Assembly: GCA_021780315.1 (NCBI GenBank)
Contig: JAJXYY010000027.1
Span: 11,179-75,178, forward strand
From: Acidobacteriota bacterium
GTDB lineage: Bacteria; Acidobacteriota; Terriglobia; Terriglobales; Acidobacteriaceae
DNA: 64,000 bases
Reading direction: 5' to 3'
The translations under genes and the position numbers were made by a program. Position 1 is the first letter of the stretch. Each line of letters begins with the position of its first letter. Under the pieces are notes generated by a model, which was not told where the DNA came from, made no database searches, and saw only the letters and a program-made list of their open reading frames with translations. Shown here in pieces: positions 4,699 to 50,991 of the stretch.

Positions 4699-4730
4699 AG
4701 GCCCCATGTCCCGTACCTCGGACTTGGGGC
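4699..4730 (+). repeat. REP-like palindromic repeat, family 1 (GGTGCCCCA-hairpin), degenerate copy
   Basis: AGGCCCCATGTCC-cgtacctc-GGACTTGGGGC hairpin; same 5' motif as the copies at 5468, 19689, 28065, 49282 and 50925. Confidence 0.5.
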
Positions 4731-4814
4731 CGCTCCCGGGTTCAACCACCACCGGATCGCGATGAAGCGCACCAGCGTGTAAAGCGATCGTCACCCGAAG
4801 TCAGGAGCAATACC

Positions 4815-5447
4815 ATGGCACGTTACACCGGACCCGTCTGCCGCCTCTGCCGCCGCGACGGTACCAAACTCTTCCTCAAGGGAGCCAAGTGCTTCTCCGA
4901 GAAATGCCCCGTCGAGAAGCGCAACTTCCCCCCAGGCCAGCACGGCCAGTCCAAAAAGGTCAAGAAGGTCGTAGGCTACGGTCTCCAACTGCGCGAAAAG
5001 CAGAAGGCCAAGCGCATCTACTTCACCCTCGAAACTCAGTTCCGCGCCTACTACCAGAAGGCCTCCAACAAGACCGGCGTCACCGGCGAACTCCTGCTCC
5101 AGCAGCTTGAGACCCGCCTCGACAACGTCGCCTACCGCCTCGGTTTCGCCATGAGCCGCCGTCAGGCCCGCCAGGTCGTCCGTCACGGTCACCTCCAGGT
5201 CAACGGACGCAAGGTCAACATCCCCTCCTTCCAGTGCAAGGTCGGCGATGAGATCTCCATCCGCGAAGGCTCCAAGGCTCTGGTCATCCTCGAAGAGTCC
5301 AAAAACTTTGCCGCCGGTCAGCGCTCTGTGCCCTGGCTCGATATCAACCGCGACAACCTCTCCGGCAAGCTCGTCGCTCTGCCGAAGCGCGAAGATATCC
5401 AGCTCCCGGTCAACGAGCAGCTCATCGTCGAACTCTACAGCAAGTAA
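4815..5447 (+). CDS. rpsD: 30S ribosomal protein S4
   Basis: [14 protein letters not shown]...PPGQHG...[15 protein letters not shown]...[12 protein letters not shown]. Confidence 0.98.
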
Positions 5448-5467
5448 CTGTAGTAGTTACAAAATAT

Positions 5468-5500
5468 CGGGTACCCCACGTCCGCATCGTCGGACGTGGG
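5468..5500 (+). repeat. REP-like palindromic repeat, family 1
   Basis: CGGGTACCCCACGTCCG-catcgt-CGGACGTGGG; perfect 10-bp stem 5475-5484/5491-5500. Confidence 0.6.
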
Positions 5501-5618
5501 TCTCTCCCGTTCTGGCCCTCCAGCCAGTCAAAACGTACCACCAACAACCTGACCCGCAACCGCACCACCCGCCAGTCCGCAGAATGCATCGCGGCTAGGA
5601 CGGATAAAGGAGAAACAC

Positions 5619-6722
5619 ATGCTTTGGAGAGGTTTTCAAAAGCCCAAGCGTCTCGCAGTCGATACCGATACACTCACCGAAAAGTACGGCAAGTTCTCCG
5701 CGCAGCCCTTTGAGCGCGGCTTCGGTACCACTATCGGCAACGCCCTCCGTCGCACCCTGCTCTCGTCCATCGAAGGCGCAGCCGTAACCGCTGTCCGCAT
5801 CGAAGGCGTACTGCACGAGTTCCAGTCCATCACCGGCATCGTCGAAGATGCGACCGACATCATCCTCAACCTCAAGCAGATCCCCTTCAAGCTCAACGGC
5901 GACGGCCCCAAGGCCCTCTACCTCCGCGCTGATCAGGCTGGCGTCATCACCTCCGGCATGATCGAAGCCGACGGCGACGTCGAGATCCTCGATAAGGATG
6001 TCTACATCTGCACCGTCTCCGAAGGCGGCAAGATCGACATGGAGATGCGCCTCAAGCGCGGTCGCGGATACATCTCCGCCGACAAGAACTTCGACGCCGA
6101 CCTCGGCCTCGGATTCATCCCCGTCGACTCTGTCCACTCCCCCGTCCGCAAGGTCAACTACCTCGTCGAGGCAGCACGTCTCGGTCAGATCACCGACTAC
6201 GACAAGCTCACCATCGAGATCTGGACCAACGGAACCATCCTCCCCGCAGATGCGCTCGGCCTCTCCGCCAAGCTCCTCAAAGACCACATGACCATCTTCA
6301 TCAACTTCGAAGAAGAGATGGAAGCCGGTCACGACGGTCTCCACGATGGTCCCGCCCTGCGCAACGAGAACCTCAACCGCTCCGTCGAAGAGCTTGAACT
6401 CTCCGTTCGCAGCTACAACTGCCTCAAGAATGCCAACATCGCCACCATCGGCGAACTCATCCAGAAGACCGAAGCCGAAATGCTCAAGACCAAGAACTTC
6501 GGCCGCAAGTCTCTGAACGAGATCAAAGAGATCCTGGCCCAGATGGGCTTCTCTCTCGGCATGAAGATCGACGAGAACGGCAACCCCGTCCCAGGACCCA
6601 CCTCGGTCCTGCCGGCTGCAACGCTCGCCGCCAGCTTCGGCAACTTCGACGACGAAGACGAGGACGAAGAGGACGACGAAGATCTCGACCTCATCCCCTC
6701 CAACGAGCCGGAAAACTTCTAA
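5619..6722 (+). CDS. rpoA: DNA-directed RNA polymerase subunit alpha
   Basis: [37 protein letters not shown] and [10 protein letters not shown] motifs. Confidence 0.98.
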
Positions 6723-6836
6723 CCGCAGTGCAACCAGCAGGAGCAGGGAAGAGTACCTTACTTCCCGCTCCTCGCTTCCGCTGCAATCACAGCAAGCCGA
6801 TCAACGGTCAATAGACCGGATCGAAGGAGATTACCA

Positions 6837-49281: not shown

Positions 49282-49346
49282 GCGGTCGTGCTTTGCACGA
49301 TGCCCACCTAGCGACGATGAGACTGTCGCGAAGATGGGGCCCCGGG
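49282..49346 (-). repeat. REP-like double-hairpin repeat, family 1
   Basis: Reverse complement CCCGGGGCCCCATCTTCGCGACAGTCTCATCGTCGCTAGGTGGGCATCGTGCAAAGCACGACCGC. Confidence 0.9.
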
Positions 49347-49358
49347 ATTGGTCGCGGG

Positions 49359-50216
49359 TTAGAGGGAGAGCAGGAATTCTTCGAGGAGGTTGGCGGCTAC
49401 GTGGGCGCGGTATTGGGCGGTGCTGCGGATGTCGTCGATGGGGTGGGTTTCGGTGAGGAGGGCGGCGCGGGCGGCGGCGATGGTGGCGGGGGTGATGGGC
49501 TGGTTGAGGAGGGCCTGCTCGGTGGCGGTGAGGCGGGCGGGGCGGTCTTGCAGGCTGGCTGCTCCGATGCGAATGTCTTTCACCACGCCTTCGGCGGTAA
49601 GACAGAGGGCGGCCAGGGCTACTTTGGAGATGGCCTGGGCGTTGCGGGTACCTACTTTGCGGGTGTAGGGAATGTAACCGTTTAGGTTGCGTTTTATGTG
49701 GATGCTGTGGAGGAGTTCGTCGGGGGCGAGTGCGGTTTTTTTGTAGCCGAGGTGGAAGTCGGTGTAGGGCATGGTGCGGGTGCCGCGTTTGGAGACGAGG
49801 GTGAGGGTGGCTTCGCAGGCGAGGAGTGCGGGTGGGGTGTCGGCGGCGGGGCTGGCGTTGACGATGTTTCCGCCGAGGGTTGCGCGGTTCTGGTTGGCGA
49901 TGGAACCAGTCCAACTGGCTGCTTGTTTGAGGAGGGGGAAGTCGGATTGGATGACGGGGTGTTTGCGGAGGTCGGTGAAGGTGGTTCCGGAGCCAATGGT
50001 GATGGCTTCGGGGGTGACTGCGATGAAGCGGAGTTCCTGGAGGTGGTTGATGGAGACGAGTTTTTTTGCGGCGAGGCGGCCGGCTGCGAGGGCGACCATG
50101 ATTTCTGTGCCGCCGGCGATGAGGGTGTATTCGCCGGGCTCGTAGGCGAGGATTTCGAGGACCGCTTCGAGGGTGGCGGGGGCGGTGAGGTCGTATTGGA
50201 GGACGTTTGAGCGCAT
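49359..50216 (-). CDS. Molybdenum hydroxylase FAD-binding (medium) subunit
   Basis: IAGGTEIM, NQNRATLGGNIVNASPAADT and DDIRSTAQYR motifs. Start at ATG 50216. Confidence 0.93.
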   Translation of the reverse strand: MRSNVLQYDLTAPATLEAVLEILAYEPGEYTLIAGGTEIMVALAAGRLAAKKLVSINHLQELRFIAVTPEAITIGSGTTFTDLRKHPVIQSDFPLLKQAASWTGSIANQNRATLGGNIVNASPAADTPPALLACEATLTLVSKRGTRTMPYTDFHLGYKKTALAPDELLHSIHIKRNLNGYIPYTRKVGTRNAQAISKVALAALCLTAEGVVKDIRIGAASLQDRPARLTATEQALLNQPITPATIAAARAALLTETHPIDDIRSTAQYRAHVAANLLEEFLLSL

Positions 50217-50266
50217 GAGGACTATTCCTGATAAGGGCAACGGCAAGAGCGATGGCAACGACAACA

Positions 50267-50397
50267 GCAGGTCCTCCGCTTCGCGAAGGATGACAACTAA
50301 AAAACAAGCAAAGGCAAAAGCGAAAGCAAAGGCAAAAGCAAGAGCAAAAGCGGATTACGGTGGTCTTCGGATTTGTGCTTTGTTCAGGATGACGGCA
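50267..50397 (-). repeat. Family-2 repeats flanking an 8x hexamer tandem array
   Basis: Family-2 copy at 50267-50303; eight degenerate AAAGCA-type hexamers at 50305-50352; a further GTCATCCTGAAC copy at about 50365-50397. Confidence 0.8.
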
Positions 50398-50886
50398 TTA
50401 AATTGGTGACGGCACAGAATTGGTTCCGGGTGTTTTGGAGGCTTGTTGGACTGCTTGGAAGATGCGGGTGTAGCCGGTGCAGCGGCAGAGGTTTCCGGCT
50501 AGGCCTTCCTGAATTTGTAACAGGTTTGGTTGCGGATATTTTTCGAGCAGGTGGTGGGTGGCGAGGATCATGCCGGGAGTGCAGATGCCGCACTGGGCTC
50601 CGCCTTGTTCGAGGAAGCATTGCTGGATGGGGTGGAGTTTTTCGTTGCTTGCGATGCCTTCGATGGTGGTGATGTGGGCGCCTTCGGCTTGCAGAATGGG
50701 GACGAGGCAGGAGTTGACCAGCTCGCCGTTGAGGAGGACAGAGCAGGAGCCGCACTCGCCTTCGCCGCAGCCTTCCTTGGCTCCGGTGAGGTGGAGGTCT
50801 TCGCGGAGGACGTCGAGGAGACGCTTGAGCGGCGGGGCTTCGATGGTTCGGGGTTGGCCGTTGATGGTTAGGGTGATTTGAGTCAT
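50398..50886 (-). CDS. Molybdenum hydroxylase [2Fe-2S] (small) subunit
   Basis: GAKEGCGEGECGSC, NSC, QCGICTPG and GNLCRCTGY motifs. Confidence 0.95.
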   Translation of the reverse strand: MTQITLTINGQPRTIEAPPLKRLLDVLREDLHLTGAKEGCGEGECGSCSVLLNGELVNSCLVPILQAEGAHITTIEGIASNEKLHPIQQCFLEQGGAQCGICTPGMILATHHLLEKYPQPNLLQIQEGLAGNLCRCTGYTRIFQAVQQASKTPGTNSVPSPI

Positions 50887-50924
50887 TTGGTAGATTCCGA
50901 GGTTGTGTTGCGGAGGATAAGAAA

Positions 50925-50991
50925 GCGGTCGTGCGTTCGCACGATGCCCATCTTAGCGACGGTGAGGCTGTCGCGAAGATGGGGCAACCGG
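50925..50991 (-). repeat. REP-like double-hairpin repeat, family 1
   Basis: Reverse complement CCGGTTGCCCCATCTTCGCGACAGCCTCACCGTCGCTAAGATGGGCATCGTGCGAACGCACGACCGC. Confidence 0.9.

Follow-up and report, generated by a model that had tools for sequence, protein, structure and literature searches.

Extragenic repeats in an acidobacterial genus keep one fixed orientation relative to patchy local strand composition

Short intergenic repeats of several families are scattered over a 64,000-nucleotide stretch of an Acidobacteriota genome (Acidobacteriaceae; contig JAJXYY010000027.1, positions 11,179 to 75,178; hereafter the window), and all of them change strand near one point. What sets their orientation? 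An earlier note, made from the letters of this DNA, had claimed that families 1, 2, and 3 and the paired blocks A and B flip together without exception, that the direction of transcription does not explain the flip, and that the repeats behave like replichore-polarised (architecture-imparting) sequences. The window is C14:11179-75178 of the genome under study (G000), which comprises 4.06 Mb in 47 contigs with 60% GC and a completeness rating of 99.8%. Other G-numbers (G001, G002, G004, G006, G008, G011, and G012) denote relatives of the same genus, from which ~0.6 Mb of sequence was sampled in total.

Repeat orientation is fixed relative to local strand composition

Family profiles were seeded with the window copies and iterated over the whole genome using nhmmer. 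Eleven copies in the window were detected by these models, three on the + strand at 19.7 to 21.5 kb and eight on the − strand from 27.9 kb onward (Table 1), and all 11 bear out the claim of one common flip without exception. The flip falls between 21.5 and 27.9 kb and brackets a sign change in GC skew at ~24.0 to 24.3 kb; + strand skew is −0.2 to −0.28 until ~23 kb and +0.3 to +0.46 from ~26 kb. Thus, the families flip together because the window spans the boundary between two oppositely polarised compositional domains. The opposite strands of the two family 3 copies were likewise recovered by nhmmer, those of block B by nhmmer and as inverted-repeat pairs, and those of block A (21167-21198, +; 28236-28267, −) as inverted-repeat pair I7. 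The lists given for families 1 and 2 stood in part. Family 1 copies at 19689 (+) and at 28065, 49282, and 50925 (−) and family 2 copies at 32237, 50267, and 50365 (−) were confirmed. The hairpins at 4699 and 5468 are real, lie in sense just 3' of + genes, and have REP-like (repetitive extragenic palindromic) 5' arms (GGCCCCATGTCC.. and GGGTACCCCACGTCC..), but they fall below the model threshold and could be plain terminators; the + site assigned to family 2 at 15936-16040 is merely three TGTCATCC octamers, also below threshold.

The scan of every family against skew that the earlier note had proposed extended this result to the whole genome. Local skew was taken from the 5-kb flanks with the element itself left out. 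With the C-rich form as reference, the copies on the locally C-rich strand were 86/88 for family 1, 65/66 for family 2, 13/13 for family 3, and 53/54 for block B. When tandem copies were merged into 170 loci, 157 agreed with the skew, 1 disagreed, 3 were mixed, and 5 lay in unskewed DNA (binomial p ~2e-41). In skewed DNA, 157 of 161 loci obey the rule, and all of the polarised domains that hold a locus agree (43/43, p = 2e-13). It is the strand rich in C and A at a given site that bears the REP tag; all 53 occurrences of the 12-mer GCCCCATGTCTC are on the C-rich strand, as are 142 of the 145 of GGTGCCCCAT. The rule is also followed by 40 copies from three further species of the genus and violated by none, with 4 more in weak-skew DNA. 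These data show that each family has one fixed orientation relative to local strand composition and that this lock is valid across the genus. Repeat density in skewed DNA is about one locus per 18 kb; the unskewed DNA, which makes up 22% of the genome, accounts for only 5 of the 166 loci (p = 2e-12). All reversed copies, two from family 1 and one from family 2, sit in a gene-free, skew-neutral 3-kb patch at C34:125.1-128.4 kb, beside a correctly oriented REP.

Antisense copies in tandem-gene contexts still follow the skew rule in 37 of 38 cases (13/14, 12/12, 3/3, and 9/9); therefore, gene strand is not the cause, and the earlier claim that transcription direction is no explanation holds. Copies between convergent or divergent genes are equally polar. 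Position does depend on genes: the repeats prefer gene 3' ends, convergent spacers are preferred over divergent ones (24 versus 6, 20 versus 3), as for REPs, and 66 of 104 tandem-context copies genome-wide (63%) are sense. An Rfam scan matched no family (e.g., Acido-Lenti-1) to the repeats, its sole match being a tRNA-Pro, at the gathering threshold as well as at E <= 0.05.

Table 1. Repeat copies and related features of the window
Position	Strand	Feature	Basis
4696..4735	+	REP-like hairpin GGCCCCATGTCCCG...GGGGCC, 3' of a + gene; weak family 1 relative or terminator	sequence reading; below family-model threshold
5468..5505	+	REP-like hairpin GGGTACCCCACGTCCG...CGGACGTGGG, 3' of a + gene	sequence reading; below family-model threshold
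15936..16040	+	three TGTCATCC octamers in the rimP-nusA spacer, antisense to both genes	rimP/nusA on − by Pfam; below family 2 threshold
19687..19754	+	family 1 copy, REP-like double hairpin with 5' tag GGGTGCCCCAT	nhmmer E = 2e-19; two hairpins, fold z = −3.3
19802..19868	+	family 3 copy, GGGGCTTCAGCCCC and GGGCTTTAGCCC hairpins	nhmmer E = 6e-18; fold z = −2.3
20888..20915	−	dif-like 11-6-11 site, not the dif of the genus	17/22 arm positions match; unconserved in relatives
21167..21536	+	block A (21167-21198) and block B (21442-21536), 5' of DUF503-rbfA-nrnA	pairs I2, I3, I7; block B nhmmer E = 3e-17
23343..25157	+	intact PMT_2 glycosyltransferase gene with the polarity sign change inside	Pfam; skew profiles
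27898..28267	−	block B (27898-27982) and block A (28236-28267), 5' of guaB	pairs I2, I3, I7; nhmmer E = 7e-17
28061..28110	−	family 1 copy, between block B and block A	nhmmer E = 1e-5
29123..29179	−	family 3 copy	nhmmer E = 4e-7
32224..32270	−	family 2 copy, GTCATCCTTCGCGAAGCGGAGGAC hairpin and T/C-rich tail	nhmmer E = 1.5e-9
49277..49347	−	family 1 copy	nhmmer E = 3e-15; inverted-repeat pairs I1, I8 with the 19.7-kb copy
50232..50393	−	two neighbouring family 2 copies (50232-50300, 50311-50393)	nhmmer E = 2e-18, 2e-6; 8-bp hairpin
50921..50992	−	family 1 copy	nhmmer E = 5e-14; inverted-repeat pair I20

REP hairpins and the RAYT gene

All four families belong, as modules, to one population of hairpin repeats outside genes that resembles REPs and bacterial interspersed mosaic elements (BIMEs); one of them has a REP-associated tyrosine transposase (RAYT). 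Family 1 is a true REP. Its core, C[TC]GGGTGCCCCATGTCTCG..TCTGAGACATGGG, folds into a hairpin with an 11-bp stem (−10.8 kcal/mol, z = −5.2 versus shuffles) and is conserved in 53 aligned copies, and it has the tag GGGTGCCCCAT in common with a 45-nt element, C[TC]GGGTGCCCCATGTCTCGCcTCTGAGACATGGGAaTGTAaAAc. Genome-wide there are 156 tag copies, and the family copies number 88 + 66 + 13 + 54; by our gene calls, 68 of the 88 family 1 copies are intergenic. Families 2 and 3 form small hairpins as well. Block B has no convincing hairpin (z = −1.45), yet its 54 copies are equally polar; it carries three or four CAAGACTTTG words, often stands 5' of genes, and may be a protein-binding array. In the 53 aligned copies, the conserved 5' tag C[TC]GGGTGC includes GGTG and GTGC and neither GTAG nor GTGG, and the insertion-site flanks, for which filled sites only were compared, hold nothing conserved beyond the element's own C[TC]GGG. 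In canonical REPs, the hairpin has a conserved tetranucleotide, GT[AG]G, at its 5' base (PMC6006769, PMC3733652). The stems are species-specific, with GTCTC here and GTCCC or ATCTC in other species of the genus.

Neighbouring REPs less than 300 nt apart form 57 direct pairs and 1 inverted pair. Same-sense tandem arrays occur at C26:31666-31772, C28:159769-159903, and C16:676418-676986; spacing is a regular 46 nt and 60 nt in two of them, and the third has five copies in 570 bp. A 360-bp composite of family 1, family 3, and flanks (window 19683-20044) has a 92% identical copy at C39:273555-273912, inverted and within an oppositely skewed domain, with more partial copies adjoining it on C39.

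The cognate RAYT that the earlier note had suggested seeking elsewhere was present. A single Y1-transposase gene is present in the genome, on the − strand of C13 at 58271-57756 (locus L047:757-1272). Its score against the NCBIfam model for REP-associated tyrosine transposases, NF047646, is 97.5 bits (cut-off, 80), and its product matches the Escherichia coli TnpA-REP structure 4ER8 (E = 2e-12), with the HUH motifs aligned and the motif reading HIH. Three REPs flank the gene, one 40 nt upstream and two downstream, all in the sense of the gene. Codon 55 is an in-frame TAG, which could reflect a pseudogene, a sequencing error, or read-through. RAYT-model matches were found in 33 of 41 sampled genomes of the genus (29 above the cut-off), with 1 to 7 each, mostly without internal stops.

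As in the REP/RAYT systems of Escherichia, Pseudomonas, and Stenotrophomonas, many short extragenic palindromes lie mostly at gene 3' ends, and a low-copy Y1 HUH transposase gene, identified by the NCBIfam equivalog model and the 4ER8 similarity, sits between its own REPs. As described for REPtrons, REPINs, and BIMEs, several motif types are mixed within a spacer and the variants are species-specific. The population described here differs in that its REPs are singlets or same-sense arrays rather than inverted doublets, its tag is GGGTGC rather than GT[AG]G, its orientation is ~98% locked to local strand composition, and its RAYT gene carries an in-frame stop. We found no paper reporting an orientation lock to strand composition for REPs.

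Skew domains, their boundaries, and the replication arms

The compositional domains to which the repeats are locked are extreme and patchy. Measured over 5-kb windows, the skew has a trimodal distribution that peaks at −0.33, 0, and +0.30. Where the coding strand is the C-rich strand, fourfold-degenerate sites carry 74% C and 8% G; where it is the G-rich strand, they carry 11% C and 66% G, and genes in unskewed DNA have 38% C and 34% G. Codon positions 1 and 2 are shifted too, and therefore protein composition is affected; intergenic DNA has a weaker skew (−0.28). Segmentation into three states gave 98 segments with ~19 sign changes within contigs, six of them on the 934-kb contig C16. Unskewed DNA amounts to 899 kb, is nearly free of repeats, and has a GC content of 57.1% versus 61%, with more A and T at fourfold sites; such domains (e.g., C16:310-444 kb and C39:0-104 kb) could be of foreign origin or could be passing from one polarity to the other. 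Literature searches turned up no account of patchy skew or of polar REPs in Acidobacteria.

The DNA strand, not the gene, sets third-position skew: Pfam-verified genes on opposite strands of one domain have coding-strand third-position skews of opposite sign. In the left half of the window, the values are +0.41 for infB and −0.52 for secY; in the right half, they are +0.79 for XdhC and −0.66 for the ATPase. The left half carries secY and the ribosomal protein/rpoA cluster on + and rimP-nusA-infB, a GGDEF protein, and an M24 peptidase on −; the right half carries guaB, a P-type ATPase, an NHL/Ig protein, and an FAD oxidase on − and XdhC, MobA, an aminotransferase, an amidohydrolase, an alcohol dehydrogenase, and an MFS transporter on + (all by Pfam). 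Gene calls are our own, from a three-class model. A single codon-usage model found only C-rich-strand genes (59% coverage, with 40% of genes lost), and a model that ignored third-position G versus C chose shadow frames and was discarded. A Pfam spot-check of the calls revealed one error in ~20 genes, at 37253-38188 (+), where the correct gene is an AI-2E transporter on −.

Codon usage dictated by the DNA strand is reportedly also a feature of Borrelia burgdorferi and Treponema pallidum. Their third positions likewise follow the strand and not the gene, but their two classes map cleanly onto leading and lagging strands, whereas the bias here is stronger (74% C versus 66% G at fourfold sites) and is spread over dozens of patches that bear no relation to ori and dif. 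The orientation of genes shows no bias with respect to skew (947 to 854 protein genes, 18 to 21 tRNA genes) and was uninformative as a guide to the leading strand, as was the single rRNA operon, which lies on a 9.6-kb contig. Loss of RNase H or uracil-DNA glycosylase was rejected as a simple cause of the extreme skew, since both enzymes are present. Polar octamers were rejected as well: the top over-represented octamers on the G-rich strand are REP words, and all G-rich words are polar by composition alone.

We then related the patches to the replication arms. The 19-nt dif core TCCGATAACACATATTATG (C42:38435-38453, next to tRNA-Ser) is identical in G002, G008, and G012 and has one mismatch in G004. 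In three single-contig relatives it lies 50.5 to 51% of the chromosome away from dnaA, and the genus therefore has ordinary balanced replication arms. Skew is + on both sides of dnaA (C16:808 kb) and + on both sides of dif (C42:38.4 kb). Clusters of DnaA boxes (>=4 within 600 bp) were found nowhere in the genome. A terminus or origin at the switch in the window was rejected on three grounds: its dif-like site (Table 1) is unconserved, the real dif lies on C42, and there is no DnaA-box cluster. G004 has a classical +/− skew change at dif and is a mosaic elsewhere, and its patches against the arms are about as strongly skewed as those with them.

REP orientation was taken as a polarity marker along two complete chromosomes, those of G008 and G004. 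The loci that agree with the ori-dif arms, in the classical sense of a G-rich leading strand, were 41 of 65 in G008 (63%, p = 0.046), with 29 orientation runs; in G004, 32 of 53 loci agreed with the arms (60%, p = 0.17), with 21 runs. There are thus 20 to 28 changes of orientation around each chromosome. Replichore polarisation is at most a weak tendency, skew polarisation is nearly absolute, and the skew patches are not equal to replication arms. The architecture-imparting proposal was right that the DNA strand rather than transcription sets orientation; the replichore as its unit does not survive an arm match of only 60 to 63% and the sign changes within contigs, none of which falls at dnaA or at the conserved dif.

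Domain boundaries are of two kinds. Sharp ones coincide with flips of gene orientation (C15:43 kb, C45:274 kb) and look as rearrangement breakpoints would, and others are gradients of 2 to 4 kb across co-directional genes (C16:768, 825, and 850 kb). The boundary in the window is of the gradient type and runs through the PMT_2 gene, whose third-position GC skew by sixths is −0.18, −0.40, −0.03, +0.14, +0.15, and +0.16. On the + strand, its left neighbour nrnA has a skew of −0.6, and GNAT and guaB on the right have +0.35 and +0.6. PMT_2 orthologues in three relatives are uniformly negative. The order rbfA-nrnA-PMT-GNAT/guaB is collinear in several relatives and its polarity differs among them, being uniform in G011 and G006 and near-neutral in G001; in G004 the block is uniform through PMT, where collinearity stops. 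The mid-block switch occurs only in the studied genome, and a physical inversion cannot give a mid-gene switch without breaking PMT_2. Inversions mediated by insertion sequences (IS) were rejected as the cause of the patches, given very few long repeats in the genome and the boundaries that are gradients through co-directional genes.

Gene order between the studied genome and G004 is scrambled down to single operons. Neighbouring operons in window 28300-48299 map in G004 to sites 0.25, 0.62, 0.87, 1.67, and 4.46 Mb apart, and yet 46 of the 54 orthologue pairs (85%) have the same coding-strand polarity in both genomes. Within window 7381-28300, the usual rimP-nusA-infB-DUF503-rbfA operon is split, with rimP-nusA-infB (−) 5 kb to the left of DUF503-rbfA-nrnA (+); several relatives have rimP placed after guaB instead. 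The 6.7-kb DUF503...guaB block has inverted A/B blocks at both ends and appears inverted relative to its flanks.

Proposed strand-specific insertion and competing explanations

Strand-specific insertion of single-stranded DNA, tracking the same strand asymmetry that makes the skew, is the best reading of these data, and we consider it probable. Y1 transposases act on single-stranded DNA at forks, and the orientation of IS200/IS605 elements is strand-biased (PMC6006769, PMC3971601); the two are thus most simply connected if repeats enter or multiply on the strand that is habitually exposed or protected in a patch. Y1-type enzymes would copy or insert the elements as single-stranded DNA from one strand only, and the strand available would be fixed in each domain by a long-lived asymmetry of single-strand exposure that would also produce the extreme GC skew. 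Same-sense arrays could then be built by local tandem duplication. Rearrangements would move repeats and skew jointly, so that the two signals would stay locked to each other and both would be tied only loosely (60 to 63%) to the present ori-dif arms. IS200/IS605 elements (IS608, ISDra2, and hairpin-ended miniature derivatives) resemble the system described here in their Y1 HUH enzyme, their single-stranded substrates with subterminal hairpins, and an orientation bias, there tied to replication-fork asymmetry (PMC6006769, PMC3971601). They differ in that the bias here tracks patchy skew (~98%) far better than the ori-dif arms, the transposase-sense strand here is C-rich and not the G-rich leading type, and no left-end/right-end pair delimits a mobile unit.

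Several observations weigh against strand-specific insertion. The RAYT-sense, 5'-tagged strand is C-rich and hence lagging in classically oriented patches, whereas IS200-family elements are reported to be oriented with fork movement (PMC3971601). Given the weak arm match, the lagging-strand template at the fork could suffice as an explanation only if numerous patches had been rearranged recently. Block B is polar without a hairpin, and a hairpin/RAYT mechanism may miss some families. Present-day mobility of the REPs is doubtful in light of the in-frame TAG read in the RAYT gene. Simple inversions do not account for those boundaries that form gradients across intact co-directional genes, and strongly skewed DNA without any of these repeats occurs (G004, right of dif).

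A self-reinforcing local process or additional replication origins, taken jointly, are a much less likely alternative. We give similarly limited credence to the idea that the genus has self-maintaining strand-polarity domains of 50 to 260 kb, in which one strand would be driven to ~70% C at neutral coding sites independently of gene direction and with a weak oriC-dif bias. Boundaries of such domains can be gradients inside intact genes and can differ between species in collinear DNA, and REP/RAYT would be polar reporters or drivers of one-strand exposure; candidate processes are nick-primed resection, strand-displacement synthesis, skew-stabilised R-loops, and many extra origins. Frequent polarity-preserving rearrangement, superimposed on very strong bias from replication, explains the sharp boundaries and the conserved gene polarity, but does not easily fit the equally skewed against-arm patches, the trimodal skew, and the within-gene gradients.

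Rather unlikely, in our judgement, is spread by double-strand recombination that preserves polarity (tandem duplication, gene conversion, or excision and re-integration), which would join like-oriented copies only and let coherence be inherited. The almost exclusively direct REP pairs, the composite that recurs on C39 in inverted form within an oppositely skewed domain, and the scrambling of operons between species with polarity kept in most orthologue pairs all fit such spread. It leaves unexplained why four unrelated families share one sense relative to base composition and why new loci agree in 43 separate domains; a founding bias would be needed anyway.

Causation might also run the other way, and we regard it as unlikely that the repeats, or a process nucleated by them, cause the skew, be it through HUH nicking at polar REPs with one-directional resection or strand-displacement synthesis or through skew-stabilised R-loops. 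Its prediction of self-reinforcing, bistable polarity domains weakly biased by replication fits a skew that is trimodal and not graded, unskewed DNA that is poor in repeat loci, against-arm patches of G004 that are about as skewed as the others, graded 'domain walls' through intact genes, and a polarity that differs between species in one collinear block. Strongly skewed stretches without nearby repeats, a density of about one locus per 18 kb of skewed DNA, a RAYT gene that is broken here, and the lower GC of unskewed DNA, as foreign DNA would have, speak against it.

An artefact of composition or survival, in which insertion is random and copies against the mutational pressure decay faster or escape the search, is improbable. 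The skew is extreme, the flanks of the repeats are C-rich, and a nucleotide search for diverged paralogues finds the skew-consistent orientation only, as an artefact would have it. The consensus sequences, however, are nearly G/C-balanced (G/C = 18/27, 18/21, and 20/24), the REP stem is symmetric, and the tag that defines orientation is G-rich yet lies on the C-rich strand. From equilibrium frequencies we estimate that a reversed copy would decay only ~1.05 to 1.25 times faster, which cannot yield 98% polarity. Moreover, 57 copies have one exact 15-mer in common and are therefore young or conserved, and none is reversed.

The idea of selected, replichore-polarised words that orient the replication/segregation machine and flip at origin and terminus, in the manner of architecture-imparting sequences (AIMS), FtsK-orienting polar sequences (KOPS), or Chi, is very improbable and largely refuted. 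Like those polar octamers of proteobacterial chromosomes, the repeats have a very strong, gene-independent strand bias that flips in register with GC skew, and G008 has a weak classical-sense excess relative to ori-dif. The elements here are nevertheless structured hairpin modules of 35 to 90 nt (35 to 95 nt in all) with a transposase, not octamers; they change orientation 20 to 28 times per chromosome, in 21 and 29 runs, and flip at neither dnaA nor dif, nor does the flip in the window fall at either landmark. Their families and variants also differ among species of the genus and are not conserved across it as words recognised by a machine are. Transcription-linked elements (terminators, attenuators, or small RNAs), with the flip a change of dominant gene strand in the window, would suit the mostly sense copies on + genes at the left and on − genes at the right, the excess of sense copies in tandem contexts, and the preference for gene 3' ends, but the skew-obeying antisense copies, the equal polarity in convergent and divergent spacers, and the lack of an Rfam match leave this the least credible account of all.

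REPs are usually described as inverted doublets without chromosomal polarity. The REP/RAYT population of this genome is a near-perfect strand marker and offers a natural test of RAYT action on one template strand in vivo. GC skew is in general use for placing origins and termini and for detecting misassemblies. The skew of this genus, tenfold stronger than usual, nonetheless fails to mark the replication arms, and origin prediction, inversion calling, and gene finding based on codon usage are misled. If the patches reflect a process other than replication from oriC, they would point to an unrecognised major source of mutation in a very abundant group of soil bacteria.

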